A stretch of DNA of 64,000 bases from Candidatus Hydrogenedentota bacterium (GTDB lineage Bacteria; Hydrogenedentota; Hydrogenedentia; Hydrogenedentales; Hydrogenedentaceae): the NCBI GenBank assembly GCA_026415215.1, contig JAOAHN010000063.1, positions 778 through 64,777 of the forward strand, read 5' to 3'. Below the pieces are notes generated by a model. That model saw only the letters and a list, made by a program, of their open reading frames with translations, was not told the DNA's origin and made no database searches. Both the position numbers and the translations under genes were made by a program. Positions 1,218 to 58,465 of this stretch are shown here, one piece after another; within the stretch, counting starts at the first letter, position 1; every line of letters begins with the position of its first letter.

Positions 1218-2834
1218 ATGTCAAAAGAAAATGACAAAATAGAGATTCTTTCAACACCACCTGAAGAAAAACTCCCTTCATATCCTGGTCATTTTTTAAC
1301 ACCAGCTGAGGACCTCTACTCCAATAACAAATTTAAAACAACTTACAAAAGATTAGCTTTACTTGCCCTCTTTTTTACCCTATCACTATGGTTCACTGAC
1401 AGATATCTAAGATACAACCTCATAGAAACAAAGTATAGAATTGCGGTCTCTCTTGAGCCAGAATCTGCTCGACCGATAATGAGAAGTGTAGTTAAAGAGT
1501 TGCAAAAAAAATTAGACACCAGTGAGTACTCACTGCAGTATTTACAATACATAGAGTTTCTTGCATCAATAGAGGAAGGAGATGAAGTCTTAAAACTATA
1601 CGAATCTATTTATCCATTCAATAATCAAAATCCAGAGTTTTTAATTAGATTAGGGTGCAGGGAGTATCTCCTTGGAAACTACGAAAAAGCGAAAATATAC
1701 TTTTCAGAAGCAGGTAATCTTGCACCTTTAAATTCTTTATCCAACTACCTGTTACTATCTGCAAATTTTAAGCTTTCCACTTACTCTGATTTCGATGCTT
1801 TAATTACAACTCTAATAAAGGAAAACATAAATAACCACTCATTAATATTTCCTGAACCCTTTTGGCATCCCTCACTCCCGGTATATTCCTACGCTTATTA
1901 TCTTAGAAAGAAAGAAACCTATGAGAGAGCACTTTCACCTATTTACGAACTGTGCTATAGTGTAACGAATCACCTGACCGACTTAGGCAGAGATAGTAAT
2001 CCATATCCCTCAGATAAGGTCAAAACGGTTCTCGAAGGGTTATACTTGATGGGAGAAAAAATTGCAAGAAAAACCATACTAAATGACCAGTACCTCGGTT
2101 CATTACCTCTACATCTTTCCCTCACAATCCAGAGACATATTCTTCACTACTATGAAAATACTAAGGAGAAACTTAAAATAAAATCTGATTTATTAGAATC
2201 TGAGAAAAGCAAAATTAGTAAAATCTCTGAAAACTTAGACCTATTATCATCTCTCAACTCTGAGCGAGAGAAAACCTTTGAAAAAAGCAAAAATAACCTT
2301 TTCTTTCTCTTGTTAACTGTAGTCTTCAATGCGGTTGGACTCTTGCTCCTCTACTTAGTCTCAAAACTTTTTAATCATCTCTTAACTGATCAGTCACCTA
2401 TTTTATCCCAACCTAACAGATTGTCTGTTATGACCCCTTTACTATGGGTAATTATTTTTACAATAATACTATTTTTATTAACACCTAACAGCTTATACTC
2501 ACCATTCTCAGTTTACAGTCACTCCTCAATCCTAAAGATCTTGGTAATAGCTAATTTTTTTATTCCTCTTTTAATATCTATTGTAGAATCATATAAACAA
2601 AACTCGGAATTATCAAATAGACAAACCTTAAAGAAAAATACCTTTCTCCTTTTTACCTTTTACTTTGAAAATACAGTATTTTTCCAACTTTATTCTCTTA
2701 TTATTGGAATCTCAATATGGTTTCTTGCATTTAGATTTCTTTTCTTCTCATACCCTTACCAATTAAATCTTGTACCGGACCTACTTACAGAAAGAGAGAT
2801 ATACCTTGTCCAATCCATAATCAAACAGTATTAG
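1218..2834 (+). CDS. Hypothetical membrane protein with an N-terminal TM helix, a TPR-like helical region, a coiled-coil stretch and a C-terminal polytopic region.
   Basis: Hydrophobic segments near aa 45-60 and a cluster of 5-6 TM-like segments after aa 355. Lys/Glu/Ser-rich coiled-coil around aa 320-350. No recognisable catalytic motif. Confidence 0.45.
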   Translation: MSKENDKIEILSTPPEEKLPSYPGHFLTPAEDLYSNNKFKTTYKRLALLALFFTLSLWFTDRYLRYNLIETKYRIAVSLEPESARPIMRSVVKELQKKLDTSEYSLQYLQYIEFLASIEEGDEVLKLYESIYPFNNQNPEFLIRLGCREYLLGNYEKAKIYFSEAGNLAPLNSLSNYLLLSANFKLSTYSDFDALITTLIKENINNHSLIFPEPFWHPSLPVYSYAYYLRKKETYERALSPIYELCYSVTNHLTDLGRDSNPYPSDKVKTVLEGLYLMGEKIARKTILNDQYLGSLPLHLSLTIQRHILHYYENTKEKLKIKSDLLESEKSKISKISENLDLLSSLNSEREKTFEKSKNNLFFLLLTVVFNAVGLLLLYLVSKLFNHLLTDQSPILSQPNRLSVMTPLLWVIIFTIILFLLTPNSLYSPFSVYSHSSILKILVIANFFIPLLISIVESYKQNSELSNRQTLKKNTFLLFTFYFENTVFFQLYSLIIGISIWFLAFRFLFFSYPYQLNLVPDLLTEREIYLVQSIIKQY

Positions 2835-2956: not shown

Positions 2957-3544
2957 ATGATGAATAGAGAACAGAAAGCTTATACAACCTTCGAAGCGGC
3001 GAGAATATGTCATGTTACTCATCACAGCATAAAAAATTGGATTAGGCAAGGCTTAATCAAAGCATCCAGAACTCCAGGTGGACATTACAGAATCTTGGAA
3101 AAAGACTTAGATGAATTCCGTGAGAAATACGACATGTTCCCCAAGGATGCGAACATGAAGAGGTATAGGATAATGGTAGTCGATGATGACCCTGAAGCAA
3201 TTCAACTAATAGAAACTGTTTTGGGTAACGATGACTATGAAATCATTAAAGTAGCTAATGCTACAGAAGTTGGTATAAAGGCTGTTTTACTATCTCCAGA
3301 TTTAATACTTCTTGATTTTCTTATGCCAGAAATCAACGGATTCGATGTCTGTAGAGCACTTAGGAATAATGATATAACAAGAAATATCCCTATAATGGCA
3401 GTAACCTGCCTTACTAAAGAATCCGATATAGAAAGAATATTTGCATGCGGAGCAGATGAATACCTTGCAAAGCCTTTTAAAGTTGACCAGCTCCTTGAAA
3501 AGGTTAAGGAATTAGTTACTAAGGGTAGAGCTGTTCTTAAATAA
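2957..3544 (+). CDS. Response regulator with an N-terminal MerR/excisionase-type HTH (HTH_17-like) and a C-terminal receiver domain.
   Basis: The N-terminus (…FEAARICHVTHHSIKNWIRQGLIKASRTPGGHYRI…) matches the excisionase/MerR HTH. The receiver has the canonical VVDDD pair, phospho-acceptor Asp in LLDFLMP, a conserved Thr (AVTCLT) and Lys (AKPF). The ATG at 2957 is 6 nt after AGGAGG; the tracked TTG at 2951 lies inside the RBS. Confidence 0.75.
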   Translation: MMNREQKAYTTFEAARICHVTHHSIKNWIRQGLIKASRTPGGHYRILEKDLDEFREKYDMFPKDANMKRYRIMVVDDDPEAIQLIETVLGNDDYEIIKVANATEVGIKAVLLSPDLILLDFLMPEINGFDVCRALRNNDITRNIPIMAVTCLTKESDIERIFACGADEYLAKPFKVDQLLEKVKELVTKGRAVLK

Positions 3545-3581: not shown

Positions 3582-6500
3582 ATGAATCCATCTAACCAAA
3601 GGAGCGGAGGTATCGAGAAAAAGTTTTTTGTTGCCATTTTCTGGGTTGGCATTCTCCCAATGACAATTACCCTAATTGTTGCTTATGTTTTCGCAAGAGA
3701 AAGTCAATGGGTAACTACAAAGAGAAATCTGACCACCGCAGTCAGGAGAACAACAGAAGGGCTAAAACTTGCCATAAATACTCGTCTAAATATTACCGAA
3801 AAAATTTCCACTGACCCTTTATTCGAAAAATTTCTAAAGCTCCCATCTAATGAGAGAAATACTTTAATACCCGAAATAACGGAAAAACTGAAAAAAGTTA
3901 AAAATACTTCCGATGGCAAAACCATCTCTTTGGCAATATTAGATACTAACAAAAATATTCTCGTTGCTCTGCCAGATTTTAACATAGGAACTGAAATAAT
4001 TCCCGAATGGCATACAAAAATTGAAAAGCCAAAGATTATATCAATTACCACATTTCCATCATCGAATATATTTACTTTCACCATTGGAGCACCAATAAAA
4101 GATAGAGAAAATTCGAATACAATAGGATTCTTGTTAGAAATACAAAGCATAGATGAACTGATTGAGTTTGCTCTCGGCAGTAGCACATCCGCATCTGAAG
4201 GATTAGGCTCAGAACATATCTATTATTCCTTGAGTTACCTTTCTGAGAAAGGTGGTATCTCAATATTTAAATCTCCCCCAAAGTCGCCTATATCCGCCAA
4301 AGATTATTATTACGAGCCTGTAGACAAAAGACTCCTTCAAAGAATAAAAAGAGCTTTTCCTAAAAATGAGGGTATTCTAACACTATTCAGTTTTATGGTT
4401 AATAATAAACGCCTACCTGTTTTAATAGCTTTCCAAAAAATATTTCCGGAGTATGAACTATATACAATAGTTTTTAGGCCTTTCTATGAAATATTCTGGT
4501 TTATTCATGTAGGTTCTATAGTGGCTCTTATTTTAGCGGGAATGGTGATCCTAATCTTCTCAATAATCGGCTACAGGATTGTAAATAAAAATATTCTTTT
4601 ACCTTTAAGCCTTATAAATGAGGGAGCCCAAATAATAAGACAGGGAGACCTCGATCTAAAACTAAAAATTGCCACAGGTGATGAACTGCAAGAAGTAGCC
4701 GAATCCTTCAACGAAATGGCTAGCACATTGAGGAAGAACATTAGAAAATTAGAAGAATCGGAAGAAAGATACAGAAATCTTGTCAACTCGATGCGAGACG
4801 GAATATTTCAAACGGACGAGAACGGAAAAATAACATTCATCAACCCGGCGGGGGCGAAGATTCTTGGTTATAGTCAACCTGAAACAGCAATAGGAACCTC
4901 CATAAACGAGTTCTTGGTGAGTGACGATGATTTTGAGTATATCAAAAATCAACTTACAACTACTGGTTTTATCCACCAACATCGTATATGGATAAAACCT
5001 TACGAAGGTGAACCAATATGCATAGAAATATCAGCAGATAGAAAAAAAGACCCTCTAAAAAAAGTATACATATTAGAAGGTATCTTCAGAGACATCACTC
5101 AAAATGTTCTCCTTGAGAAAGAAGTCCACAAGAGAGCCGAAAGAATCAGAGCTGTAAACCTCATCGCTCAAAGTATAAATTCAAGCCTCGAAGTCGGCAA
5201 AGTATATGAGACTATATTAGAAGAGATTAAAAGGTTAATCCCATCTGCGGATTTAGTGCTTTTGGCAATAAATAAATACAAAAGTGGTGATACCGACAGT
5301 CCTTCTGTTGAATATGAAATACTTAAGAGCTCTTCAAAAAATGTTGAGGAGATTCCTATTCCAAACAAAAGTATAACAAGGTTATCGACAAAAAAAGATT
5401 TTATTCATTATGACTTTCTACAGTCAGAAGACGAAGAAATAGCGAAAGAATTTCCTCCCAGGATTTCGAGCCTTTTAGGTATCCCCCTCTACACAGAACA
5501 AGAATTCCTTGGATGCCTAATTCTCGCATCTGAAACTCCCAAAGTGTTTTCATCACATGAAATAAATACTGTAGAAGAACTTGCTCCCCATATCGCTGTC
5601 GCTATAAGAAATGCAAAACTACTTGAAAAACTCAGACAAACTCTGGATGAAGTAAACCAAGCAAAAGAACAACTAAATATGGCAAACGAAGAATTGAAAA
5701 CACTTGATGAGATGAAAACAAATTTATTGTCAAATGTATCTCATGAATTAAGAACACCTCTTGTAGCGGTAATGGGATACACAGACATGGTTTTAAAAGG
5801 GAAAGCAGGGCCTATAACAGAAAACCAAAAAGAATTCTTGACGATAAGTATGAGAAATATAGAAAAACTTGTAACTCTCATAGATAACCTACTTGACTTT
5901 TCAAAATTATACAAAGGTAAAGAAGAGCTTATATTTAGCACTTTTGACTTAATAGAATGCGTCGAATATGGAATTCAGAATATTAGGCCCATGGCTGAAC
6001 CAAGAGGAATAACTCTGGAAGTTATATACCCCGAGAAGCCTATACTTGTAGATGGCGACAAAGGAAAAATACTACAAGTCCTAAATAACCTTCTGTCAAA
6101 TGCAGTAAAGTTTAATAAGAATAACGGAGCAATAACTGTCACAATAGAAAAAGTGGAGGATAGAGAGGTAGAAATTTCTGTATCAGACACGGGCATAGGA
6201 ATCCCTGAAGAAGCCCTGGACAAAATCTTTACAAGATTTTACCAAGTAGACTCCTCTTCAACAAGAAAATATGGTGGAGCTGGTATAGGTTTGGCTATAT
6301 CTCAAGACATTATCAGGCTCCATGGAAGTACAATAAGTGTCAAAAGTAAATTGGGCGAAGGTAGCACCTTCTCCTTCAGATTACCATTACACGGTAGATC
6401 ACCTAAAGACCATGCAAAATTTGATAAAGAATTAACTCCAGAGGAAACTCACCTATTAGTTGAGTTAGTTACTCAAGACCGAGGCCTCAATGCTCAAATT

Positions 6501-7205
6501 CGCCAATGGCTAATCGAAGAAAACATCGATGTTATAAGTGCTCTTCATCAATCTGCTGCGGTTTCTCTATTCCTAAAATACAGCCCCGACTGCATAATTA
6601 TTGACTGTGAGGATTCCCCTCTCGCTAAAGAAAGGCTAAGGGAAATTATTGAGAATCCGGCATTAGAAAATGCCCCATTAGTTGTTCTTACCGATGATAA
6701 CAGAATTGGAAGCCTATACCCTGATAAGGCTATATCTACAATATCTAAAAGTTTTGGAAAAAGTAAATTAATCTCGGCGATAAGATACACTGTAAAAGCA
6801 TCTTCTTCGGAAATACCTTCTGAACTTGGAGATAAAATACTCTATCTTGATAATGAGGAACTTACTAAGTTAGTAAAGCCAATTCTTGAATCAAGCGGCT
6901 ATAAAGTCGAAGCCGTTACTACAGGAGAGGGCGCCCTCGAAAAAATACTAACTGGTGAATTCAGAGTACTCATATCAGAAATAACGCTCCCAGGACTTGA
7001 CATCTGGGAAACCTGTAAAATAATAAGAAGCAATCCTCAACTAAGAAGAATTAAAATAATCATAACTACAACAAAAACTCCCCAGGAAGTAGAAGAAAAT
7101 TGTAAAAAATACAACTTACATATAGACGGGCTACTACCAAAACCCTTCACAGCAGATGACCTACTTAGCGTAGTTAATAAATACTTCTCAGTGAGTCACA
7201 AGTAA
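3582..7205 (+). CDS. Hybrid sensor histidine kinase: TM, a roughly 260-aa extracytoplasmic sensor, TM, HAMP, PAS, GAF, HisKA, HATPase_c and two C-terminal receiver-like domains.
   Basis: HAMP-like LPLSLINEGAQIIRQGDLDLKLKIATGDELQEVAESFNEMA. PAS RYRNLVNSMRDGIFQTDENGKITFINPAGAKILGY. H-box SHELRTPL. ATPase G-boxes DTGIGIP and GGAGIGLAI. Two REC-like folds at the C-terminus. Confidence 0.85.
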   Translation: MNPSNQRSGGIEKKFFVAIFWVGILPMTITLIVAYVFARESQWVTTKRNLTTAVRRTTEGLKLAINTRLNITEKISTDPLFEKFLKLPSNERNTLIPEITEKLKKVKNTSDGKTISLAILDTNKNILVALPDFNIGTEIIPEWHTKIEKPKIISITTFPSSNIFTFTIGAPIKDRENSNTIGFLLEIQSIDELIEFALGSSTSASEGLGSEHIYYSLSYLSEKGGISIFKSPPKSPISAKDYYYEPVDKRLLQRIKRAFPKNEGILTLFSFMVNNKRLPVLIAFQKIFPEYELYTIVFRPFYEIFWFIHVGSIVALILAGMVILIFSIIGYRIVNKNILLPLSLINEGAQIIRQGDLDLKLKIATGDELQEVAESFNEMASTLRKNIRKLEESEERYRNLVNSMRDGIFQTDENGKITFINPAGAKILGYSQPETAIGTSINEFLVSDDDFEYIKNQLTTTGFIHQHRIWIKPYEGEPICIEISADRKKDPLKKVYILEGIFRDITQNVLLEKEVHKRAERIRAVNLIAQSINSSLEVGKVYETILEEIKRLIPSADLVLLAINKYKSGDTDSPSVEYEILKSSSKNVEEIPIPNKSITRLSTKKDFIHYDFLQSEDEEIAKEFPPRISSLLGIPLYTEQEFLGCLILASETPKVFSSHEINTVEELAPHIAVAIRNAKLLEKLRQTLDEVNQAKEQLNMANEELKTLDEMKTNLLSNVSHELRTPLVAVMGYTDMVLKGKAGPITENQKEFLTISMRNIEKLVTLIDNLLDFSKLYKGKEELIFSTFDLIECVEYGIQNIRPMAEPRGITLEVIYPEKPILVDGDKGKILQVLNNLLSNAVKFNKNNGAITVTIEKVEDREVEISVSDTGIGIPEEALDKIFTRFYQVDSSSTRKYGGAGIGLAISQDIIRLHGSTISVKSKLGEGSTFSFRLPLHGRSPKDHAKFDKELTPEETHLLVELVTQDRGLNAQIRQWLIEENIDVISALHQSAAVSLFLKYSPDCIIIDCEDSPLAKERLREIIENPALENAPLVVLTDDNRIGSLYPDKAISTISKSFGKSKLISAIRYTVKASSSEIPSELGDKILYLDNEELTKLVKPILESSGYKVEAVTTGEGALEKILTGEFRVLISEITLPGLDIWETCKIIRSNPQLRRIKIIITTTKTPQEVEENCKKYNLHIDGLLPKPFTADDLLSVVNKYFSVSHK

Positions 7206-8285: not shown

Positions 8286-8599
8286 AATTTAATACTTCCT
8301 CCTTTTTTCGCAAATACACACTGGAAAAAAATCTACTTCTTCCTCACAATATAAATCGTAATATAAACTCTCTTTTTTACATTTTTGCTCTTCCTATAAT
8401 CTTCCTATATCTTTGTATTATTTTTTTCAAAACATTTGAAAATTTAAAGTGAAATTTTATCATATCCTATTTAACAATTCAATCATCATTCATACACACC
8501 TATATCTATTTCATCTACTATAGTATTTTGGTAATCGGTTACTTATGGCATAAAACAATCAGCCAAATCTAATAAAATAAGCATTTAAGAAGGTCAAAT

Positions 8600-9290
8600 A
8601 TGGGGAAAAAGGGTTAGGCTAATCAAACTTCTTGTTGTCATAGCTTTTAATCAGTATTCTCAAAGCAATTCTACTTCCCGCTCTCGCACATGCTCGTGAT
8701 ATAGATCCTCGTTCAATTCGTCGGAATAATCTTAAACAATGGAGTCTTGTACTCAAAATAATTCTAATTAGACAAAAGGTGAACATTTCTCCAGTGTAAA
8801 TGGGATTACACCCAAGAACAGATGGATAGCCCAGATGGATATTAGATGTTGGTCTAAATGCACTTGGTCTCTATACTGAGTACTTAACTGGCCCGATGAT
8901 TATCTTTTGTCCTTCCGATGCTATTTAGGAACTTCAATTGCTCGTGTTATTTTATTGGAATCTATCCACAAATAAACAAGTATATTTTGGCGAGGCAAAG
9001 AATCAGAAACGGTGTGAGTTCTACAGTGTATCGTCTAAAAGAAGGTATAAAAATATTCTCAATTACAGGCATTAAATTAACAATCCAAATGCTTCTGCCC
9101 AAGCTCAGAGCAGTGTTTGGATAATGTTCTACCAACTTTGTACAAATCCCCACGCATACAGCCACATTCCGGGTGGCTCCAATGTGCTTTACATGAATGG
9201 ACATGTCCAATTCCTGAGATATGGCGAATGTGAACTGCCGCAGTTAACAGACCAATGGCATTATTAGTAGGTATATTGACTTCTAACTAA
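8600..9290 (+). pseudogene. Decayed tandem paralog of the downstream prepilin-type/DUF1559 gene (9523..10506), with an early stop and internal deletions.
   Basis: DNA is collinear with 9508..10506, including the RBS and start context (aagaaggtcaaatATGggg vs aaggaggtcaaaatATGcaa). It shares the N-terminal hydrophobic segment, a middle block (8840-8935 vs 9811-9880) and a near-identical 3' end (9121-9290 vs 10337-10506). A TAG stop falls at codon 6 and roughly 300 nt are missing relative to the intact copy. Confidence 0.7.
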
Positions 9291-9395
9291 ATAATAGACT
9301 CAAGTAAATCTTCAACTTAGAATCATCTTTTAGTGACTATTTTAGTGATTATATTGAATACGAGTTATAACCGCTTATTTTTTTCTTTCAAACGA

Positions 9396-9424
9396 TTTGA
9401 CATCTGAATTTTTATTAATATAAG
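9396..9424 (+). promoter_or_regulatory. Candidate sigma-70 promoter, TTGACA-17-TATAAG, for the DUF1559 gene.
   Basis: TTGACA at 9396-9401 and TATAAG at 9419-9424. AAGGAGG RBS at 9508-9514 before the ATG at 9523. Confidence 0.35.
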
Positions 9425-9522
9425 ATTAGTGCAAAGTTTACTTTTATTCTTTCAGTAATCGATTACTTCTCTGTGTGAAGTAGTCAAGTAAACCTTAAGA
9501 ACAAGTTTAAGGAGGTCAAAAT

Positions 9523-10506
9523 ATGCAAAAGAAGGGTTTTACTTTAATTGAACTACTCGTCGTCATCGCCATTATTGGCATACTTGCTGCAATTCTACTT
9601 CCTGCTCTCGCCCGCGCCCGTGAAGCCGCTCGCCGGTCAAGCTGTCAGAACAATCTAAAACAATGGGGACTCGTTTTCAAGATGTATTCCAACGAAGCTA
9701 AGGGAGAAAGATTTCCCCCGATTCAGGCAGGTGTCTACTTGGATGCAAATCAGCAATACAGAGGTGTGTTAGACGCTGGACCAAATGTATTTGTCCTTTA
9801 TCCAGAATACTTGACTGACCCAATGATAGTCTTCTGTCCATCTGATGCAGAGTTGGGAACTTCTATTGCCCGAGCACACTTCAATGACGATGTGAACCAA
9901 GATTGGTGTCTGGGTTATGCACACAACCATGGTGGAAGATGCGCTCGCGCTATCGACATGAGCTACGGTTACCTCGGATGGGTTTTAGATAAGGGTAATT
10001 GCGACGATCCTATAACCACTGTTTCCTCTTTCCCATTATTAGGAACATTAGCCCAAATGTTAGGCGTACAGCTCGATCCCAACACTCAGATCTCATCCCA
10101 AGTAGGTGCTGCTTTTGAATATCTTGTCCAGCAGGCGCTTCCTTTAATAGGAGTAGATCCTAATACCTTACCCAAAGGGATTTATCCTACCATCGACCAA
10201 GACATCCCTGTTACTGCAGGTCTTGGTAATGGCGGTGGCTCGACAATCTATAGGCTAAGAGAAGGTATTGAGAGATTTTTAATTACCGACATCAACAATC
10301 CAAGTGCCTCTGCCCAAGCTCAAAGCAGTGTTTGGATAATGTTCGACCAACTCTCTACAAATCCCTCTGCATACAACCACATTCCGGGTGGCTCTAATGT
10401 GCTTTACATGGATGGACATGTGCAATTCCTGAGATACGGCGAATGTGAACCTGCCCCAGTTAACAAACCAATGGCGGTATTGGTTGGAATCCTAACTTCG
10501 AGCTAA
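9523..10506 (+). CDS. Prepilin-type N-terminal cleavage/methylation domain protein with a C-terminal DUF1559 (H-X9-DG) domain, a pseudopilin-like secreted protein.
   Basis: [44 protein letters not shown] is the classic type IV pilin-like leader and methylation site. The C-terminal [15 protein letters not shown] fits the H-X9-DG motif. This family is massively expanded in Planctomycetes and other PVC lineages (established knowledge). Confidence 0.8.
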
Positions 10507-32023: not shown

Positions 32024-34879
32024 TTACCGTGGTAGGCAGAATCCATCAATGTCAGCACTATTGTCTCCACAATCTCTCATATATCCACCGATATTGAAGA
32101 ATTGTATCAGTCTTAGTAACTCTGTAAGTTGGATTTTCCAATCCTGGGGACTGTAATCGCTCAAATGCGGTTTACACATTCTTAGGGACAGATCATCACC
32201 TGGCATATATCCATCCTCTGACTGACTCAAAGCACAGTGATAACCTCCAGCGTTGAAAAATTGAATAACTCTCAAGAGTTCACCAAGCTCAATCTTCCAA
32301 TTTCGATTAGTGTCCGCAGAGTGATATGGGGAATCCTCTCCTTCATCATCACCTTCAATACTCCCTTCTGAGACTCCTTCTATTTCACCTTCAAGTATTA
32401 TCTCTCCTTCTAAACCGCCCTCTGAGAGCCCTTCCGTATCACCTTCTACTTCACCTTCATTTACTCCCTCCTCAATCACACCTTCGGATGAACCTTCTTC
32501 GATCCCTTCAGTAGAACCTTCAATAACACCTTCCTCAACACCATCTACAGAACCTTCTATTTCGCCTTCAGATACTCCTTCAGTAACACCTTCAAAAACT
32601 CCTTCTGAGACACCTTCGGGTATTCCCTCGACAACACCCTCAGACACTCCTTCCATCACACCTTCGGAGATCCCTTCTCCTTCTTCATAGCCCTCTACAA
32701 TACCTTCACTCACACCTTCTTCAACAGATCCTTCCAAAGAACCTTCCGCTGTACCTTCTCCTTCTTGAACCATATACGGTTCAAAGTCATAACAATCCAA
32801 TACACCATTTTGATTCAAATCAACCGCATTTAATTGTTCTTGAGTAATGGAAGAATTTAATCCTTGCAGTTCATAAAGAATCAGAACCTCATCTCCATTA
32901 ATATCAATATCTGTGAACAGGTCATATATAACGCTTACTCTACTGAACTCACTTACACTTAATTGCCCGTCCCCATTAGTATCCACAAGATACCATCCTA
33001 ATAGCACTGTATCACTCCACCCAGTAATAGCCTTCAATTCATCCCTTGAAAGCAGTTTATTTCCATCTGTATCTCCAAACATCAAAAGGATATAATAATA
33101 ATGGACAATATCCGTTATATCACAAGGAGCCTCACCTCCATATACCCAACTATAATCCTCCGGACAAGGTGGGCATCCACCCCCGTCTGATGTCACATTG
33201 ATATCCAATGCAGAAGCCACAAATACATCATAATTCTGTGGAGATGTTACATGTGCTGTGTATTCACCCTTATTACAAACATTGTCAAAATCAGGATCAC
33301 CATCTGAGGCAAGATATTGGCCCGCAGTAGTGTCATATTCGTCGATAGTAAATGTTCCCCAGAAGTAAATGTAATCAATAATCTGAACTATTCTATTTAT
33401 GAAAGCTTTCTCGCCAGTGGTTAAGACACCAGCGATTACCGGAATGAATACCGAACTGGAAATAAACTGACCGATAAAAGGCAAAGAATTCCATTTAGTC
33501 TGGGCAGTTACTCTATTATTCATATAAGAATTCCTGACACAACAGAAAATTGGTAAATCAGGATGTGCAAGAATATAGTCTAACAATCTGGCTTGAGCAA
33601 CATCCGCTATTCCATTTTCGTCAATATCTGCGGTATCAGGATTAAGTCCTAACCAAGAAGCAAGGTTGTATAAGCTTCTTAGCGAGCTCTCAAACTGTGA
33701 ACTCACAGGGGAATTACTACATGTACTCCAACACCATTCAGCATAACAAGATTGGGGGAGCGGACCTATCAGATCCCAACAATCGAGATAGCCATTATCA
33801 TCTATATCTATTTCGTCAAATTTAGCCTGGGTTATCTTGCTACTCAACTGTCTTATCTCCGTCAAAGTTACTTTATTATCCCCGTCTGCATCTAAGTGTT
33901 GAGGTAATAAGCCACCTAAACGATTACTATCAACAAATTCTTGGTAGGACATATAGCCATCTCTATCTTTATCAATCAACCACCACCCCAACTCAAGTAA
34001 AATTCCATTAACGAACGCCTTTAGTTCATTCTTCGAAAGTTTTCCATCTGCATTGGTATCCCCGAAGAGCACAAGCAGAGCGAAGTAATTCTCATTAGAC
34101 CTCATATCACACTGGGGCCCCGGGGTTCCTTCTCCCTCACCAGTGCCCTCACCTTGCCCACAGTCAGGACAGCCCCCGTAATAGTCCCTTACATTAGGAT
34201 TTACTGCAGCGGATACAAAAGCATTAAAATCATCGGGTATCGTTAAAACCCAAGCTCTATACTCACCAATATTACAGACTCTATCAAGGTCAGCATCACC
34301 CTTAGCATTGAGATACACTATGTTTGAACCATCAAGCTCTAAGAGAGAAAGATCTGGCAAGTCAGGAATTATCCATTTTAACGCACTTAGTATCGTATTT
34401 ATGATTTCTTCATTTCCCATCGTTGCTAAAGCGGCAAAAAATGTCTTTAGATTTTCTAAATCAGGAGGCTCCCCAAGATAAGATGGCCAACCCGCATTAA
34501 TAGCCATAGCTAAAGCTTCGACCTTTACCCTATTCGCTACATAAGACCAATATATACAATTCCGAGTAGAAATCGCATTAAGAGGATTCATCTTCATTAT
34601 AGTGTCAAATAATCTTGCTTGAGCAACATCCTTCATTCCGTCAAAGTCAAGATCTAAGTTGTCCGGATTACCACCCAATAGAGGGATCTTCGTATACAGC
34701 TCACGCATCGAGTTTTCAAAACTCTCTGTATAAATTAGCCCAGGTATAATGTTATTACAAGGAGGAATATTACAATAATCTGGTTCTTGGGACTGCGAAT
34801 ATACATAGCCTAAATTAAACAAAATAAAAACTACTAATATATACATCACCCTGGGAGTATATGTAACACTTACTTTCAT
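32024..34879 (-). CDS. Large secreted Ca-binding repeat protein with multiple EF-hand/dockerin-like loops, two copies of a roughly 175-aa module, an acidic EG-repeat tract and a C-terminal twin ELLRVIQFFN module.
   Basis: Signal/TM leader. Canonical 12-residue loops DTNADGKLSKNE, DKDRDGYMSYQE, DADGDNKVTLTE, DTNGDGQLSVSE. An (EG[VIS]xEG)n tract of about 140 aa. C-terminal NWKIELGELLRVIQFFNAGGYHC … DWKIQLTELLRLIQFFNIGGY. Confidence 0.7.
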   Translation of the reverse strand: MKVSVTYTPRVMYILVVFILFNLGYVYSQSQEPDYCNIPPCNNIIPGLIYTESFENSMRELYTKIPLLGGNPDNLDLDFDGMKDVAQARLFDTIMKMNPLNAISTRNCIYWSYVANRVKVEALAMAINAGWPSYLGEPPDLENLKTFFAALATMGNEEIINTILSALKWIIPDLPDLSLLELDGSNIVYLNAKGDADLDRVCNIGEYRAWVLTIPDDFNAFVSAAVNPNVRDYYGGCPDCGQGEGTGEGEGTPGPQCDMRSNENYFALLVLFGDTNADGKLSKNELKAFVNGILLELGWWLIDKDRDGYMSYQEFVDSNRLGGLLPQHLDADGDNKVTLTEIRQLSSKITQAKFDEIDIDDNGYLDCWDLIGPLPQSCYAEWCWSTCSNSPVSSQFESSLRSLYNLASWLGLNPDTADIDENGIADVAQARLLDYILAHPDLPIFCCVRNSYMNNRVTAQTKWNSLPFIGQFISSSVFIPVIAGVLTTGEKAFINRIVQIIDYIYFWGTFTIDEYDTTAGQYLASDGDPDFDNVCNKGEYTAHVTSPQNYDVFVASALDINVTSDGGGCPPCPEDYSWVYGGEAPCDITDIVHYYYILLMFGDTDGNKLLSRDELKAITGWSDTVLLGWYLVDTNGDGQLSVSEFSRVSVIYDLFTDIDINGDEVLILYELQGLNSSITQEQLNAVDLNQNGVLDCYDFEPYMVQEGEGTAEGSLEGSVEEGVSEGIVEGYEEGEGISEGVMEGVSEGVVEGIPEGVSEGVFEGVTEGVSEGEIEGSVDGVEEGVIEGSTEGIEEGSSEGVIEEGVNEGEVEGDTEGLSEGGLEGEIILEGEIEGVSEGSIEGDDEGEDSPYHSADTNRNWKIELGELLRVIQFFNAGGYHCALSQSEDGYMPGDDLSLRMCKPHLSDYSPQDWKIQLTELLRLIQFFNIGGYMRDCGDNSADIDGFCLPR
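32330..32760 (-). repeat. Coding low-complexity tandem repeat (acidic EGVSEG-type tract) inside 32024..34879.
   Basis: Reiterated ccttc/accttc units in the DNA, translating to …EGVSEGIVEGYEEGEGISEGVMEGVSEGVVEGIPEGVSEGVFEGVTEGVSEGEIEG…. Confidence 0.7.
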
Positions 34880-35440: not shown

Positions 35441-35522
35441 CTTTATCCTAATTTTGTATAATTATTATAACACAAAATCTCGTAAAAGATATCGTGTACT
35501 CACTGTATTCAGAGTGTTGTTT

Positions 35523-36905
35523 ATGCAACAAAGATTACAACAAATTCCGCAACTAAGGCAAGAGCTAAGGCTATCTCAAACTCAAATCCAGTCATTGGAA
35601 ATTCTTCAGCTTCCCACACCAGAGTTAGAAACCCGATTAAGAGAAGAAACTGAAAAAAATCCTTTTTTAGAAATTGAAGAGAAGAGTAGCCTATCTTATG
35701 ATGACATAACAACCATTGAAGAAAAAGACCCCGAACAATATTACTCCAAAGATTTTAACAGAACACTGCCCTTAGATTTGAGTAAAAATCGTCACTCAGA
35801 ACTACCTGTTAATATTGTTTCAGTGACCCCTTCTCTGAAACAGCATTTAATAAAACAACTTAGATGTACCACTGAAGAACCCAGAATTCTCCAGATAGGC
35901 GAGGCGATAATAGCAAATATAGACAGAAAAGGCTATCTCTCAGAAACTGTGGAGGATTTAGCTCAGTCACTTAATGTAGGCAAAGAGGAGGTAGAAAAGG
36001 TCTTAGAAATTATACAGAGTTTCGAGCCTCCAGGCGTAGGTGCAAGAAATCTTAAAGAATGTCTTCTCATTCAGGCTAAAATTCTTTTTCCTGACAACTT
36101 TCTTTTAATAGAACTATTAGACAATCACTACGACGAGTTTATAAATTCACAAAAAAATAAAATAGCTAAAAACTTAAAGATCACACTGGAAGAAGTAGAA
36201 AACATCTACAAACTTATTAAAGAAAACTTTAATCCTCATCCAGGATACCAGTACCCAGAACCACCTGAGTATATATTCCCAGATCTTATAGTTAAAGAAT
36301 TAGAGGATGGCAAATATACCGTAGAGTTAGTAGATGAATACCTCCCCAAGGTTAAGCTGGTTGAAACTTTATCTCAAGAAGATATAAAAAAACTACCCTC
36401 CGAAGAAAAAGAAAAAGTAAAAGAGTGGAAAGAAACCGCTAAATCACTTATAAGAAGCATAGAATTAAGGAAAGATACCCTATTGAAAGTGGGGGAAGAA
36501 ATTGTAAGGAGCCAAGAAGGTTTTATGAAAAAGGGCCCCTCACACTTAAAGCCTATGACTTACAAAGACATAGCCCAAAAGTTAGGGGTTCACGAATCAA
36601 CAATATCCAGATGCATTGCAGGAAAGTGGATTGCTACACCTCAAGGGATATATGAGCTGAAATTTTTCTTCACGAGAGGACTCGAATCAGCTAAAGAGGG
36701 AGAAACAGTATCCGCTCAGGCGATAAAAAATTTAATATTAGAAATTGTTAACCAGGAAAATAAAGCAAAACCTCTTAGCGACGAAAAAATTGCCGAAATG
36801 ATAGAAAAACAACTCGAAGTAAAAATAGCTCGAAGAACTGTTGCAAAATATAGAGAAGAACTTAAAATTCCCAACTCATCTGATAGAAAAAGAATCCAAA
36901 AATAA
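35523..36905 (+). CDS. rpoN: RNA polymerase sigma-54 factor.
   Basis: Gln/Leu-rich region I (MQQRLQQIPQLRQELRLSQTQIQSLEILQLPTPELE…NPFLE) and a C-terminal RpoN box ARRTVAKYRE. The start is at the ATG at 35523 rather than the tracked 35454. Confidence 0.9.
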   Translation: MQQRLQQIPQLRQELRLSQTQIQSLEILQLPTPELETRLREETEKNPFLEIEEKSSLSYDDITTIEEKDPEQYYSKDFNRTLPLDLSKNRHSELPVNIVSVTPSLKQHLIKQLRCTTEEPRILQIGEAIIANIDRKGYLSETVEDLAQSLNVGKEEVEKVLEIIQSFEPPGVGARNLKECLLIQAKILFPDNFLLIELLDNHYDEFINSQKNKIAKNLKITLEEVENIYKLIKENFNPHPGYQYPEPPEYIFPDLIVKELEDGKYTVELVDEYLPKVKLVETLSQEDIKKLPSEEKEKVKEWKETAKSLIRSIELRKDTLLKVGEEIVRSQEGFMKKGPSHLKPMTYKDIAQKLGVHESTISRCIAGKWIATPQGIYELKFFFTRGLESAKEGETVSAQAIKNLILEIVNQENKAKPLSDEKIAEMIEKQLEVKIARRTVAKYREELKIPNSSDRKRIQK

Positions 36906-43260: not shown

Positions 43261-44485
43261 TATGAGCGCTCAAATTATTAGATTATAAAAGTATTTTAGC
43301 TGAGTCGTTAAAAATTTCTACATACTTCTAATCAATATTCTATGTTTTTTCATAAAATAAATCATATAGCACAGTAAATCTTACCAATATAAATAGTCAA
43401 CTCACCTATGTGTTCAGAATTACTATGTTACCATACATACTTCTACAGTAATATAAATATATAAAGAGTTTATATCAGGTTTATTAAGTATGAATAAAGA
43501 AAGAAAGTGATAGATCAGGAATTAAGTATCATCCTAAGGAAAAGACCACTGTCCAGGAACGGAAGATAACCCATGAGTCGAGATAGTATATATTAAGTTT
43601 AGCCCAACAGTTAAAACTAAACAGAAGAACGGTATTGAAATGGAACGATAGGAGTTGAGGGGTACATCTTCTCTCAACATCGGTTCCAGACTGTCCTCAA
43701 TCCAATAGGAAAGTGAGTTGTATGTAAGGTGAGTAGAGCTATCCGCCTAAATTTTCGGGATATTGTGGATATCTTAAATTTATCTAACTCGCAGTTAAAC
43801 CATAGCAATGCGTCACGATATCTCCATCAATATGAAGTTCCCAAAAAAGAGCGAAAAAAAGCGGAGGGATAAAAGAGAACTCTGATAGCAAGGGGATTTG
43901 AGCCTACATTCCCGGTGTTTATTCATATTAATGTAAAGAAATACCGAAATTGCCAGGAGACCTTCAGAAGAAGATATACTTGGGGCTCCAGAATGTGCAA
44001 TCTGGTAGGTTTATGTGTCTCCGATAGATGGACAGAATGCTTATATTCCCAGGAGTTTCGGCAGGAAATGATAGAACTCTTCTTACATTCGTCCACATTA
44101 TTCTTACTGACAATTAGGAATGAATTTACTGATAAATATTATCAGAAGCGAGAGAACCCCTCGCGGATGAGCGTGCGTTTGTCAAAGTGTATGTGAGGGG
44201 AGGAATAGAAGATAAGTTAACCTGTCTATACATGCCGAGTAAGAAAAAATTAGCAGAGCAGTTAAAAGTAGAACTGTGGAAATACTCAAGAAATATCATT
44301 TTATAAACTATATAAGATGATAAAGGTATCAGAAAGGTGAGTGTTAAATAACCGAGACTATTCAGAGTAAGTGTTTAAGTAATATTGGGGTCTGTGCCTC
44401 CTTAATCCATCTACTAACAACGCAAATAACTATAATCTGTTAAATCCTTACATATATTAGCCCTGATTAGCCAAATCATGTATTC

Positions 44486-56929: not shown

Positions 56930-58465
56930 ATGCCAGAAAAAAAGGAAAAAATTCTGGTAGTAGATGATGAACTAATAATCAGAGAGCTACTAACAGACCT
57001 ATTAACGGAAGAGGGTTTCGAAGTCATAACTGCTCCTGATGGAGAAGATGCATTACAGATAATAAAAGAGGACAAAGAAATTTCCATAATCTTTACTGAT
57101 ATATTGATGCACAGGATGGATGGTATCCAACTTATCCACAAGGCAAAAGAGATAAACCCAAACTTTGTTCCTATAATAATGACAGGCTATGCAACATTAG
57201 AGACGGCGAGAGCGGCTGTTAAAGAAGGAGCCTATGACTATGTTCTAAAACCTTTCAATATATCAGAAATAAAAACCGCTGTATACAATGCAATAGAGCG
57301 TCATAGATTAATCCTCGAAAACGCCCGACTAAAGGAAATTACCGAACTATTCAAAATCAGCGAGAATATATCTTCTATCAGAGATGAGGAACAACTGCTC
57401 CGATTCATATTAAACACTGCTTTAGAATATACAGAAGCAGAAAGGGGTTCAATATTAATAGTAACTGAGGATGGAAAACACCTTAAATTAGTAGCTGGAA
57501 CGGGGATTCCACAAGAATTGATAGGAAATGTGATTCCCATGAAGCCTACCTCCATTTCCGGAATAGTAGCGTTAAATATGGAACCGTTTTTTGTTGAGGA
57601 CATTGAATCCCAGCCTGAGATAAAAGAATACATCATAGGACTGAAAAATAAATCATTTATATCCGTTCCGTTAAAAAGGAAAAAAAGTGATTTTATAACT
57701 CATCATCCTCTAATGGATAACCCTTCAGATATTATTGCGGTATTGAATGTAACTGATAAGAGGAACAATGCTCCATTTACAGAGTCAGACCTTAAAGTGT
57801 TGAGAATCATAGGCAACCACGGCGCAGTTGCGATTGAGAATGCAAGGCTAATTAGGGAAATAGAATCTGCACAGAGAGAAATCGTGTTTACCTTGGGTGA
57901 GATAGTAGAAACTCGTTCCCGAGAAACAGGAAGCCATGTGAAAAGAGTCGCGGAGTATTCGAAAGTACTCGCATCCAAAATAGGCTTATCTCCTAAAGAG
58001 GCAGAGATTTTGAGATTAGCCGCTCCTCTTCACGATGTAGGTAAAGTGGGTATCCCTGATGCTATCCTAAATAAACCAGGCTCCCTAACCCCATCTGAAT
58101 TCGAAATAATTAAGACTCACACTATCATTGGACACGATATGCTTAAGAAAACAAAGGGTGTTGTTCTCCAGTCAGCAGCAATAATTGCTCTCGAACATCA
58201 CGAAAGATATGACGGAAACGGTTATCCTCAAGGTAAAAAAGGAAAGGAAATACACATATACGGAAGAATAGTAGGAATAACTGATGTGTTCGATGCTTTA
58301 GGTGTAGATAGAATATATAAAAAAGCATGGTCGCTTGAGGAAATTAAAGACTATTTCGCAGACCAAAGAGGCAAGCAGTTTGATCCTGAACTTGTAGATA
58401 TTTTCTTTGCAAACATAGAGGAAATACTCCAGATACGCGAACGCTTCCCTGAAAAACAACAATAA
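56930..58465 (+). CDS. Response regulator REC-GAF-HD-GYP (c-di-GMP phosphodiesterase, RpfG-like).
   Basis: Canonical receiver (ILVVDDE…IFTDILMHRMDG). A central GAF domain. An HD-GYP domain with HD…HHERYDGNGYP. Confidence 0.85.
   Translation: MPEKKEKILVVDDELIIRELLTDLLTEEGFEVITAPDGEDALQIIKEDKEISIIFTDILMHRMDGIQLIHKAKEINPNFVPIIMTGYATLETARAAVKEGAYDYVLKPFNISEIKTAVYNAIERHRLILENARLKEITELFKISENISSIRDEEQLLRFILNTALEYTEAERGSILIVTEDGKHLKLVAGTGIPQELIGNVIPMKPTSISGIVALNMEPFFVEDIESQPEIKEYIIGLKNKSFISVPLKRKKSDFITHHPLMDNPSDIIAVLNVTDKRNNAPFTESDLKVLRIIGNHGAVAIENARLIREIESAQREIVFTLGEIVETRSRETGSHVKRVAEYSKVLASKIGLSPKEAEILRLAAPLHDVGKVGIPDAILNKPGSLTPSEFEIIKTHTIIGHDMLKKTKGVVLQSAAIIALEHHERYDGNGYPQGKKGKEIHIYGRIVGITDVFDALGVDRIYKKAWSLEEIKDYFADQRGKQFDPELVDIFFANIEEILQIRERFPEKQQ

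Follow-up and report, generated by a model that had tools for sequence, protein, structure and literature searches.

What becomes of a hybrid histidine kinase whose last receiver domain carries a glutamate where the phosphorylatable aspartate should stand? Such a domain belongs among the pseudo-receivers, which account for a few percent of receiver domains; according to reviews, the switching of the bacterial ones is still largely unexplained (PMC12632262). The kinase that raises the question here is encoded in a stretch of 64,000 nucleotides (the window) from a Candidatus Hydrogenedentota bacterium. It ends in two CheY-like domains, REC1 and REC2, and the glutamate lies in the second. The analysis below follows this residue from its place in the fold to its distribution among orthologous kinases, and then to what REC2 may still do.

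The kinase and its partner regulator

The kinase follows the layout HAMP-PAS-GAF-HisKA-HATPase, then REC1 and REC2 (Pfam and structural model). Two membrane helices are predicted at about residues 14-38 and 305-333, flanking an extracytoplasmic region of about 265 residues. An identical protein is present in the protein collection as P0005. The features of the locus are the following:

2960..3544, + strand: response regulator with an N-terminal HTH_17/MerR-like DNA-binding domain and a C-terminal canonical receiver (Pfam, orthologues)
3582..7205, + strand: sensor histidine kinase, 1207 aa (ORF list, Pfam domains, orthologues)
4584..5606, + strand: the cytoplasmic signal-input modules together (HAMP, PAS, GAF)
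4584..4733, + strand: HAMP, cytoplasmic signal-input module (Pfam, 38.7 bits)
4764..5096, + strand: PAS, cytoplasmic signal-input module (Pfam, 58.7 bits)
5202..5606, + strand: GAF, cytoplasmic signal-input module (Pfam, 34.2 bits)
5715..6392, + strand: kinase core, HisKA and HATPase_c
5715..5909, + strand: HisKA (Pfam, 57.3 bits)
5742..5744, + strand: phospho-His721, within SHELRTPL
6054..6392, + strand: HATPase_c with N, G1 and G2 boxes (Pfam, 111.1 bits)
6453..6806, + strand: REC1, a strongly diverged CheY-like domain (Pfam, 20.3 bits; AlphaFold2; profile alignment)
6603..6605, + strand: Asp1008, on the acceptor column of REC1 (profile alignment to solved receivers)
6834..7196, + strand: REC2, an aspartate-less pseudo-receiver (Pfam, CheY alignments, AlphaFold2, orthologues)
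6849..6851, + strand: Asp1090, first acid of REC2
6852..6854, + strand: Asn1091, second acid of REC2
6978..6980, + strand: Glu1133, GAA codon, phospho-acceptor position of REC2
7068..7070, + strand: Thr1163
7140..7145, + strand: Lys1187-Pro1188

A phospho-His box together with N, G1 and G2 boxes (NLLSNAVKF, DTGIGI and GGAGIGL) makes this a HisKA-type sensor histidine kinase. The core is the best conserved region of the protein: it is 90% identical inside the clade of four genomes to which the window belongs, and only 5-7% of its family-conserved positions are replaced.

The preliminary description of the locus had paired the kinase with an HTH_17-REC regulator, and the pairing is borne out, the regulator lying immediately upstream of the kinase in 16 of the 16 loci where this can be checked (locus L001 is cut off upstream). 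It scores 48.5 bits against HTH_17 and 83.7 bits against Response_reg. Orthologues begin with MNREQ, which places its start at 2960, and the mechanical ORF of 197 residues begins with a TTG at 2951; the acceptor aspartate is residue 122 of that ORF (codon 3314..3316). Across loci the regulator is 73-93% identical, with the acidic pair, the acceptor Asp, the Thr and the Lys intact in each. Because it is adjacent, conserved to this degree and fully canonical, it is the likely phospho-acceptor of the kinase, and throughout the phylum Hydrogenedentota the two genes appear to form a conserved two-component system. Pfam scans of the window's ORFs and intergenic ORFs revealed no Hpt domain, nor is one annotated in the flanks of five orthologous loci, and Rfam and tRNA scans of the 64-kb window gave no matches.

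Glutamate on the acceptor column of REC2

REC2 matches the Pfam family Response_reg (PF00072) with 52.1 bits, above the curated cut-off of 30.2 bits. The translation of 6834..7205 reads KILYLDNEEL...FRVLISEITLPGLD...IIITTTKT...LLPKPF. When it is aligned by phmmer with solved CheY structures, "vliSEitlPgld" pairs with "fviSDwnmPnmd" or "viiSDvnmPvm", and because the SE is thus set against the SD of CheY, Glu1133 falls on the column of CheY Asp57. This column was calibrated on 395 receiver domains aligned to REC2 and drawn from 146 representative matches, mostly unrelated proteins: 385 of them have Asp, and Glu, with four cases, is the commonest exception. The exhaustive representative search behind this set returned chiefly generic receivers and served for this calibration only. 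In the AlphaFold2 model (mean pLDDT 89) each REC domain is built of five strands and five helices, and Glu1133 is the final residue of strand beta3; Asp1090 and Asn1091 immediately follow beta1, Thr1163 ends beta4 and Lys1187 immediately follows beta5. The predicted fold resembles CheY4 (Foldseek, TM 0.88, rmsd 1.9-2.0 Å). Glu1133 is therefore exactly on the phospho-acceptor column, a placement on which four independent lines agree: the CheY alignments, the 395 receivers, the 121 orthologues described below and the AlphaFold2 model.

The acidic pair asks for more care. Its register is ambiguous in single-sequence alignments, with Pfam and one CheY alignment putting Asp1090 on the second acid; the orthologue alignment and the modelled end of beta1 favour Asp1090-Asn1091 as the pair, and this register is used here. 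The preliminary description had read a Glu codon at 6978..6980 in place of the usual Asp, and DN instead of DD with the Thr and Lys positions kept. Both readings hold, and of the checks it had proposed, the comparison with orthologues sets Glu1133 on the acceptor column and the structure prediction puts that residue at the end of beta3. It had also named what would overturn it, a genuine acceptor Asp in the nearby PGLD, and here the answer is negative: Asp1140 is the "DG" aspartate at the start of helix alpha3, equivalent to CheY Asp64.

Two other candidates were considered and set aside. Asp1140 as an alternative acceptor is rejected, as it occurs beside the true acceptor Asp in Asp-type orthologues. 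An assembly error as the source of the Glu is likewise rejected, four independent assemblies of the same clade agreeing on it with GAA or GAG codons.

Measured against a canonical receiver, REC2 thus lacks the acceptor Asp (Glu1133) and has one acid in place of the Mg-binding two (Asp1090-Asn1091), and retains the Thr at the end of beta4 and the Lys after beta5. With a score above the Pfam cut-off, Glu at the acceptor and Asn as second acid, it is an aspartate-less receiver (ALR) and a pseudo-receiver (PsR) as these are defined in the literature, the former as a PF00072 domain without the acceptor Asp and the latter as one in which any of the five active-site residues is missing (PMC12632262, PMC4395418). 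The tethered phosphorylatable Asp that a phosphorelay hybrid kinase requires is a Glu in REC2, and in REC1 it is an Asp within a degenerate domain that scores below the cut-off. The pattern itself is already known. Among ALRs, Glu occupies the acceptor in 26%; the first acidic residue survives in 65% and the second in only 29% (PMC4395418). Pseudo-receivers commonly have Asn as their second acid and Glu as the acceptor residue (PMC12632262). The combination seen in REC2 is in fact the modal pseudo-receiver pattern, and the locus adds no new principle in this respect.

Origin and remodelling of the glutamate forms

Orthologues of the kinase were gathered with the full-length query and a genome scan, which gave 120 full-length proteins; those that carry a name are nearly all labelled Hydrogenedentota. 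A word-index search for homologues of a 268-aa C-terminal fragment gave four matches, none of them over the REC2 of an orthologue. Among 121 Hydrogenedentota orthologues the REC2 acceptor column holds Asp in 114 and Glu in seven, and nothing else, and the Asp-Asp acidic pair is present in 111. The Glu is thus a trait of the window's lineage and not of the family as a whole; with a canonical Asp receiver in 114 of the 121, the change is a recent loss in one lineage. Loss of REC2 itself was sought in 119 full-length orthologues and found in none, all of them reaching the acceptor column.

In a neighbour-joining tree computed without REC2, the Glu forms stand at three separate places, each with Asp-type sisters. 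Outside the window's clade, the Glu-type protein P0013 has the Asp-type P0014 as a close relative, and the Glu-type pair P0069/P0120 has P0037 as its sister. The Glu codon is GAA in the window and GAA, GAA and GAG in the three other members of its clade; in Asp-type orthologues the acceptor codon is GAT or GAC. Thr and Lys are kept in all Glu forms. This distribution shows the Asp-to-Glu swap to be recent and to have happened on at least three occasions in the kinase family. If replacements followed the 26% Glu background of ALRs (PMC4395418), three Glu in three events would have p ~0.018. The fact that Glu alone replaces Asp in the three events, taken with the purifying selection described below, gives some evidence that a carboxylate at the acceptor may have been selected.

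The four-genome clade of the window has a heavily remodelled REC2. Of 47 family-conserved REC2 positions, 19 are replaced in every member of the clade; for the sister clade the figure is three of 49 (Fisher p = 6e-5). Of the 19, 17 come in addition to the Asp-to-Glu and Asp-to-Asn changes, and the replacements are themselves fixed inside the clade. They lie near the active site, in helix alpha1, in an alpha4 insertion and ahead of beta5. Helix alpha1 of a receiver is the face that docks on the His-bearing helix of the kinase. Identity of REC2 to outgroup orthologues is 32.7% for the window's clade and 49.1% for the sister clade, and in the same comparison the gap for the other domains ranges from 1.4 points in the opposite direction (HATPase) to 9 points. 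The residue that serves as aromatic switch, which precedes the Lys by three positions, is Tyr or Phe in outgroup orthologues and Leu or Ile here; its loss predates the Asp-to-Glu change, and because of it the usual activation coupling may not operate in REC2.

Inside the clade, REC2 dN is 0.17-0.27 with dS saturated, and this dN equals the values for the sensor, PAS and GAF domains. Because most pairs of sequences show saturation at synonymous sites, the case for selection on REC2 is made from dN and saturation and not from a dN/dS ratio. The Glu1133 codon shows synonymous turnover. Together these comparisons show a burst of remodelling and then purifying selection. REC2 is therefore an aspartate-less pseudo-receiver that has been maintained, and neither an error nor a relic in decay.

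How does this compare with the known ALR/PsR domains? Chlamydia ChxR, the plant pseudo-response regulators and Ascomycota Rim15 likewise combine a PF00072-type fold with an acceptor Glu, a retained first acid and Lys, and a lost second acid (Asn in REC2). Rim15 offers a further parallel, with one sub-lineage carrying Glu and a true receiver in the rest of the orthologous family (PMC12632262). Unlike these, REC2 is no stand-alone regulator, being tethered as the C-terminal receiver to a membrane sensor kinase; a single bacterial family of orthologues has seen the swap three times or more; and the kinase is no orphan, its canonical partner regulator adjoining it.

Proposed mechanism and its alternatives

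Most members of the family have a kinase that closes with a diverged REC1 and then a catalytically complete REC2. In the window's clade, REC2 has turned into an aspartate-less pseudo-receiver through the change of the acceptor Asp to Glu and of the second Mg-binding Asp to Asn. Such a domain should be unable to receive a phosphoryl group from His721, and direct transfer from the His to the Asp of the neighbouring regulator (3314..3316) would therefore be the kinase's sole signalling route. REC2 would be retained for regulation or docking, as a module that works independently of phosphorylation and is fixed in a single signalling state, and an ancestral intramolecular phosphate sink or feedback branch would thereby have been removed. 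The likeliest fixed state is a phospho-Asp-like "on", suggested by the retained carboxylate, Thr and Lys; this is the least certain step. Taken as a whole (non-phosphorylatable REC2, direct transfer to the regulator, REC2 kept as a fixed-state module), the explanation is one that we favour with moderate confidence. It is also conceivable that the ancestral REC2 fed a phosphorelay and not a sink, since an Hpt may lie outside the 64 kb and the short flanks.

Receivers of hybrid kinases that work without a phosphorelay are known from VirA (PMC4705274) and from CikA and ShkA (PMC12632262). The hybrid kinase VirA of Agrobacterium passes its phosphate straight to the adjacent regulator, and its C-terminal receiver serves in docking and regulation, where it can activate as well as inhibit (PMC4705274); VirA differs from the present kinase in keeping its Asp (D766), in having no tandem REC and in its regulator, the OmpR-type VirG, which belongs to another family. 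Synechococcus CikA (GAF-HisKA-HATPase-pseudo-receiver) is also a GAF kinase whose terminal receiver-like domain has no acceptor Asp; a separate regulator takes its output and the pseudo-receiver modulates autophosphorylation (PMC12632262). The likeness is architectural, with no homology beyond the domain level: the single C-terminal pseudo-receiver of CikA binds quinone and KaiB, whereas the window's kinase is membrane-bound, with HAMP, PAS and a tandem REC. Caulobacter ShkA (DHp-CA-pseudo-receiver-receiver) shares the order after the kinase core, a degenerate REC and then a second REC, and the structure of full-length ShkA (6qrj) is one of those that match the tandem REC model, though the window's second REC, unlike that of the 114 Asp-type orthologues, is no true receiver. 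The ShkA pseudo-receiver controls kinase autophosphorylation (PMC12632262) and binds c-di-GMP, and its REC2, a true receiver, passes phosphate into an Hpt phosphorelay; here REC2 is a pseudo-receiver as well, no Hpt was found in the window or the five orthologous flanks, and the sequence similarity is at the generic REC level only.

A stricter reading, that of the preliminary description, would make REC2 a phospho-mimic lock. The Glu1133 carboxylate would reach Thr1163 and Lys1187 and hold the domain permanently in a phosphorylated-like state, so that the effect of phosphorylated ancestral REC2, for example relief of kinase autoinhibition, is now constitutive. Replacement of Asp by Glu alone in three independent events and retention of Thr and Lys in every Glu form fit this reading, as does the standing of Glu as the commonest residue at the site in aspartate-less receivers (PMC4395418). 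Laboratory Asp-to-Glu phospho-mimics such as NtrC D54E use the same substitution in the same column; many receivers, those of NtrC, OmpR and others, are partially activated by it (PMC4395418 ref. 31; PMC12632262). These are, however, mutants of intact receivers, while the change in REC2 is natural and fixed and came with loss of the Mg-binding Asp and many replacements. The substitution also fails as a phospho-mimic in several receivers (CheY, PhoB, Spo0A without extra mutations), and in ChxR the Glu is not required for activity (PMC4395418); whether Glu mimics phospho-Asp thus depends on the receiver, and in ChxR it does not (PMC4395418, PMC12632262). Glu is moreover the most conservative substitution and could be favoured by fold or electrostatics alone, REC2 has no aromatic switch residue, and the 18 accompanying replacements in the clade suggest a new structural solution over simple mimicry. 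On balance a strict lock is possible but doubtful. The evidence for selection of a carboxylate does not by itself demonstrate an active-state lock of REC2.

The second alternative turns to REC1, whose Asp1008 could be the functional intramolecular acceptor of the family, with REC2 an accessory; the REC2 Asp would then have been lost repeatedly because phosphorylation of REC2 was always dispensable. The preliminary description had this domain without a DD pair and keeping an Asp in CIIIDCED. The Asp does stand on the acceptor column, as Asp1008, but the pair is not wholly gone: its columns hold Gln965-Asp966 in the profile alignment, so the first acid alone is lost. Thr1037 and Lys1056 occupy the Thr and Lys positions. 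Conservation among orthologues is 98% for both Asp1008 and Asp966 and 91% for Thr1037, the column of Lys1056 holds either Lys or Arg, and AlphaFold2 models REC1 confidently as a (beta-alpha)5 fold (pLDDT ~97). By alignment, then, the REC1 active site is less degenerate than first stated. That its highly conserved Asp could be a real intramolecular acceptor counts against the explanation favoured above, and the repeated loss of the REC2 Asp indicates that REC2 phosphorylation is non-essential. Against a working REC1 stand a Response_reg score of 20.3 bits, under the cut-off of 30.2, a Gln as first acid, an Arg in about 85% of orthologues on the Lys1056 column, and the missing "MP" loop motif after the acceptor; the Pro that usually follows the Lys is missing too, with Ser in its place in the window's kinase and Gly in the consensus of the family. 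The published definition makes REC1, too, a pseudo-receiver (PMC12632262), and a fully canonical REC2 in 114 of 121 orthologues argues that REC2 is the one used. An acceptor role for REC1 is accordingly judged unlikely. Two Arg in its alpha4-beta5-alpha5 region, which corresponds to the c-di-GMP-binding face of ShkA-like pseudo-receivers, are present in 95-98% of orthologues and lost in the window's clade.

Might REC2 of the clade simply be a decaying, functionless relic? Evolution did speed up on the branch to the clade and two of the five catalytic residues are gone, but four genomes with saturated synonymous sites show no frameshifts, stops or truncations, REC2 has the same dN as the sensor, PAS and GAF domains, the replacements peculiar to the clade are fixed, the fold is predicted confidently and the domain is present in 119 of 119 orthologues, which leaves decay very improbable. 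Still less credible is a REC2 that is phosphorylated after all, on Asp1140 of PGLD, seven residues downstream of Glu1133, or as glutamyl phosphate on Glu1133, which is possible in principle: Asp1140 aligns with CheY Asp64 and co-occurs with the acceptor, hence is no displaced acceptor, the Mg-binding Asp is also lost (Asn1091), and glutamyl phosphate has no known example in a bacterial signalling receiver (PMC4395418).

In annotation, the window's kinase should not be classed as a phosphorelay hybrid kinase. The family also provides a clean comparative set, with about 120 orthologous kinases, a conserved partner regulator and three Asp-to-Glu conversions of different ages, each with close Asp-type sisters. 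Such a set could test natural Glu as a phospho-mimic, and the role of a tethered receiver without an obvious phosphotransfer protein. Tentatively, in this system conserved across an uncultured phylum, the tethered receiver of the kinase might be no phosphorelay step but a phosphorylation-controlled autoregulatory switch, hard-wired at least three times by Asp-to-Glu, a natural phospho-mimic; in the oldest case, compensatory changes would then have reshaped the active site and the docking helix. Were this true, the family would be a natural experiment on Hpt-less hybrid-kinase receivers and on the conversion of a receiver into a pseudo-receiver.

The sensor kinase and its two receivers

The protein considered here is a sensor kinase:

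3582..7205, + strand: sensor kinase ORF, 1207 aa, with the glutamate site at its 3′ end

Pfam places HAMP, PAS, GAF, HisKA and HATPase_c domains in that order, followed by two Response_reg matches, of which the last 123 residues (REC2) score 52.1 bits and the preceding stretch (REC1) 20.3 bits, below the cut-off of 30.2 bits. An extracytoplasmic region of about 265 aa lies between two hydrophobic stretches (residues ~14-38 and ~305-333), and the kinase core is complete, with His721 within SHELRTPL and the N, G1 and G2 boxes. The protein is itself in the collection searched, under the NCBI label 'ATP-binding protein [Candidatus Hydrogenedentes bacterium]'.

The preliminary description placed a glutamate at the phospho-acceptor position of REC2, and four independent lines bear this out. 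When 6834..7202 is aligned by phmmer with solved CheY structures, RVLISEITLPGLD pairs with FVISDWNMPNMD, Glu1133 (codon 6978..6980) corresponds to CheY Asp57, and the Thr and the Lys of 'KPF' are also correctly paired. Among 395 receiver domains aligned to REC2, which came from 146 representative hits in mostly unrelated proteins, the acceptor column holds Asp in 385, and Glu (4) is the commonest exception. Across 121 aligned orthologues it holds Asp in 114 and Glu in 7. Finally, residues 940-1207 modelled with AlphaFold2 (83 aligned sequences, mean pLDDT 89.1) form two (beta-alpha)5 domains; in REC2, beta3 ends in Glu1133 and beta4 in Thr1163, while Asp1090-Asn1091 come after beta1 and Lys1187 after beta5. 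In Foldseek searches the single domains match CheY-type structures (CheY4: TM 0.88, rmsd 1.9-2.0 A) and the tandem matches PleD, ShkA and the RcsC C-terminus. The nearby Asp1140 of 'PGLD' was considered as the acceptor and rejected: it is the 'DG' aspartate at the start of alpha3, and since it coexists with the true acceptor in Asp-type orthologues, the objection it might have raised fails. Because the acceptor aspartate and one Mg ligand are both missing, REC2 cannot be a normal phospho-acceptor.

The AlphaFold2 model gives REC1 a CheY-like fold with high confidence (pLDDT ~97), although its sequence is strongly diverged. Aligning a profile of 24 orthologues to solved receivers (RR468, PdtaR, EvgA, FrzS and others) gives Gln965-Asp966 as the acidic pair, Asp1008 as the acceptor, Thr1037 as the Thr and residue 1056 at the Lys position (Lys in the window, Arg in ~85% of orthologues). 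Conservation is 98% at Asp966 and likewise at Asp1008; the 'MP' loop motif and the Pro after the Lys are absent. REC1 had been described as lacking the acidic pair while keeping an Asp, which is right for the retained acceptor and for the first acid, replaced by Gln965, and wrong for Asp966, which remains. By the published definition (PMC12632262), its sequence makes REC1 a pseudo-receiver, although Asp1008 could conceivably still be phosphorylated. Two REC1 arginines near beta5, residues 1053 (6738..6740) and 1059 (6756..6758), are 95-98% conserved, the other Glu lineages included; the window's clade has Thr/Leu and Gly/Asn there instead. One possibility is that the pair forms a ligand or partner site.

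Recurrence and retention of the glutamate receiver

A genome scan, with one genome per species, recovered 11 orthologous loci, most labelled Hydrogenedentota, two Nitrospirales and two just 'uncultured bacterium'; a full-length protein search recovered 120 kinase orthologues of 40-100% identity, the window's own protein among them. Ten of the 11 scanned loci carry a textbook receiver (ILCVDDD ... LILLDIAMPGLDG ... VTAK ... KPF), and within this set the pattern YLDNE ... ISE ... LDI ... TTTK occurs only in the window and its closest relative. Where a phylum is named, the kinase orthologues are otherwise Hydrogenedentota, and the contigs of L001 (CAZZMK010000121.1), L008 (CAZBNU010000006.1) and P0116, labelled 'uncultured Nitrospirales' or 'Nitrospiraceae bacterium', are likely mis-binned or mislabelled.

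The seven Glu forms, which derive from independent assemblies, fall in three separate places of a neighbour-joining tree of the 121-sequence set from which the REC2 columns were left out: the window's clade (P0005, P0006 and P0007, with L001 outside the tree); P0013, a single sequence nested with the Asp-type P0008 and P0014; and P0069 with P0120, a pair whose sister is the Asp-type P0037. Acceptor codons are GAA or GAG in Glu forms and GAT or GAC in Asp forms, and therefore one third-position transversion suffices per event. Glu is the sole residue ever to replace the acceptor Asp in the 121 orthologues; three events out of three, against a published Glu share of 26% (PMC4395418), gives p ~0.018.

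The 'LDG' motif that opens alpha3 keeps its Gly in 115 of the 121 orthologues. This residue has become Ile in the window's clade (window Ile1141, 7002..7004; P0006, P0007, L001) and Val in P0013; a beta-branched hydrophobic residue occurs here only in these two of the three Glu lineages, and the Asp-type P0079 has Pro. This may be a convergent change accompanying Glu.

In the window's clade REC2 first changed rapidly and then came under constraint. Its identity to outgroup orthologues is 32.7%, versus 49.1% in the Asp-type sister clade, a deficit of 16 points; in the other domains the difference runs from 1.4 points the opposite way (HATPase) to 9 points. Every clade member departs from the family at 19 of the 47 conserved REC2 positions (those shared by 80% or more of the Asp-type orthologues), against 3/49 in the sister clade (Fisher p = 6e-5) and 16% in the remainder of the same protein (p = 3e-4). 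The replacements cluster at the beta1 end, the beta1-alpha1 loop and alpha1 (Phe to Leu, Arg to Pro, Cys to Ile), and again in beta3, the beta3-alpha3 loop, the residue after the Thr and before beta5; alpha4 carries a two-residue insertion. Among clade members these replacements are invariant or nearly so, identity is 67% in REC2 and 74% over the whole protein, and REC2 dN (0.17-0.27, dS being saturated) lies in the same range as that of PAS, GAF and the sensor region. One member has GAG instead of GAA as its Glu codon. The acceptor column is reached in all 119 full-length orthologues examined, so REC2 has been lost in none. This pattern speaks against REC2 being a relic and argues for a re-optimised, maintained domain; that the tethered REC2 is maintained by selection is clear. 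The younger pair P0069/P0120 has a smaller REC2-specific acceleration (49.5% vs 58.0% identity to outgroup).

The GAF domain (5202..5606) of the window's clade differs from the family at 13 of 34 otherwise conserved positions (38%), where the sister clade differs at 18%, so the lineage that remodelled REC2 changed the kinase's input side as well.

The regulator and the surrounding genes

Upstream of the kinase lie:

1218..2834: 538-aa protein with several hydrophobic stretches and no Pfam match, between phosphoglucose isomerase and the regulator
2960..3544: HTH_17-REC regulator, 194 aa, directly upstream of the kinase, with an HTH_17/MerR-like domain at the N-terminus and a receiver at the C-terminus (83.7 bits, Pfam)

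The output domain of the regulator is thus N-terminal to its receiver, and its true start is probably ATG 2960 (MNREQ) rather than TTG 2951. The pairing already proposed for kinase and regulator holds at every locus whose upstream flank is present: by tblastn at ten Asp-type loci and at L040 and L041 of the window's clade, and by gene calls and translations at the Glu-type L042-L044, making 16 loci with the window (L001, cut off upstream, is outside this count). Over the 12 tblastn loci, identity to the window's copy is 73-93% for the regulator and only 41-76% for the kinase, and every locus preserves the regulator's acidic pair as well as its acceptor Asp, Thr and Lys.

Ahead of the pair, in the window's clade and at most other loci, come phosphoglucose isomerase and a ~540-aa Pfam-less protein. 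The 538-aa protein is likewise placed in several more distant loci (35-56% identity) and may belong to the same functional unit. A LacI-type gene follows the pair in the window's clade and at four of the closest Asp-type loci, and L001 also has a LacI neighbour; the loci of the younger Glu pair, L043 and L044, have different neighbours. A search for Hpt domains turned up none, whether in the window's ORFs of 150 aa or more, in its intergenic ORFs or in the annotated flanks of five orthologous loci.

Further features of the window are:

8286..9522: 1.2 kb without a long ORF, with frame-shifted prepilin-type N_methyl/SBP_bac_10 (DUF1559-like) fragments at 8722..9287, 46-85% identical
32024..34879: 951-aa protein in which Pfam recognises only short EF-hand-type calcium-binding loops
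35454..36905: rpoN (sigma-54)
43261..44485: another 1.2 kb lacking any convincing ORF, GC 0.35 (window 0.37), in which neither an Rfam family nor a tRNA was found
56930..58465: second response regulator, REC-GAF-HD_5, putative HD-GYP-type phosphodiesterase
61111..63117: 668-aa protein in which Pfam recognises only short EF-hand-type calcium-binding loops

The first of these looks like a pseudogene: its counterpart at the same position in a related genome (L040 12975..14033) is intact, and the gene has an intact paralogue next door at 9523..10506.

A receiver that probably works without phosphorylation

The acceptor Asp is missing from about 2% of PF00072 domains; in these, Glu most often stands in its place, the second acid is commonly Asn, and the first acid and Lys are usually retained (PMC4395418, PMC12632262). 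The window's REC2 matches this modal pattern exactly, and its kinase resembles ShkA and CikA in holding a pseudo-receiver within a hybrid kinase. A change from Asp to Glu in one sub-lineage of an orthologous family has a precedent in fungal Rim15 (PMC12632262). Glu pseudo-receivers, sub-lineage swaps and pseudo-receivers in hybrid kinases are thus all already known.

The kinase core is intact and highly conserved, and the neighbouring regulator is canonical and conserved. The phosphate of His721 would be handed directly to the regulator Asp (codon 3314..3316). The ancestral REC2, like that of most living relatives, would have been a phosphorylatable sink, feedback or relay element, and in the window's lineage it would have become a fixed-state regulatory or docking module independent of phosphorylation. 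We consider this general pseudo-receiver model the probable one. Roles of this kind have precedents: the VirA receiver docks VirG and, with no phosphorelay, stimulates as well as inhibits signalling (PMC4705274), and the pseudo-receivers of CikA and ShkA control kinase autophosphorylation (PMC12632262).

The stricter proposal of the preliminary description, that Glu1133 mimics phospho-Asp and makes REC2 'constitutively on', appears rather doubtful. A locked, phospho-Asp-like state is consistent with Glu being the only replacement and with Thr and Lys being kept; however, Glu mimics phospho-Asp in some receivers only (PMC4395418, PMC12632262), and the aromatic switch residue of REC2 was already gone before the change from Asp to Glu. 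What the present family adds to the known pseudo-receivers is a recurrent, Glu-only conversion in a system conserved across a phylum, with matched Asp-type sisters, a comparative set that, without itself answering the phospho-mimic question, opens it to experiment.
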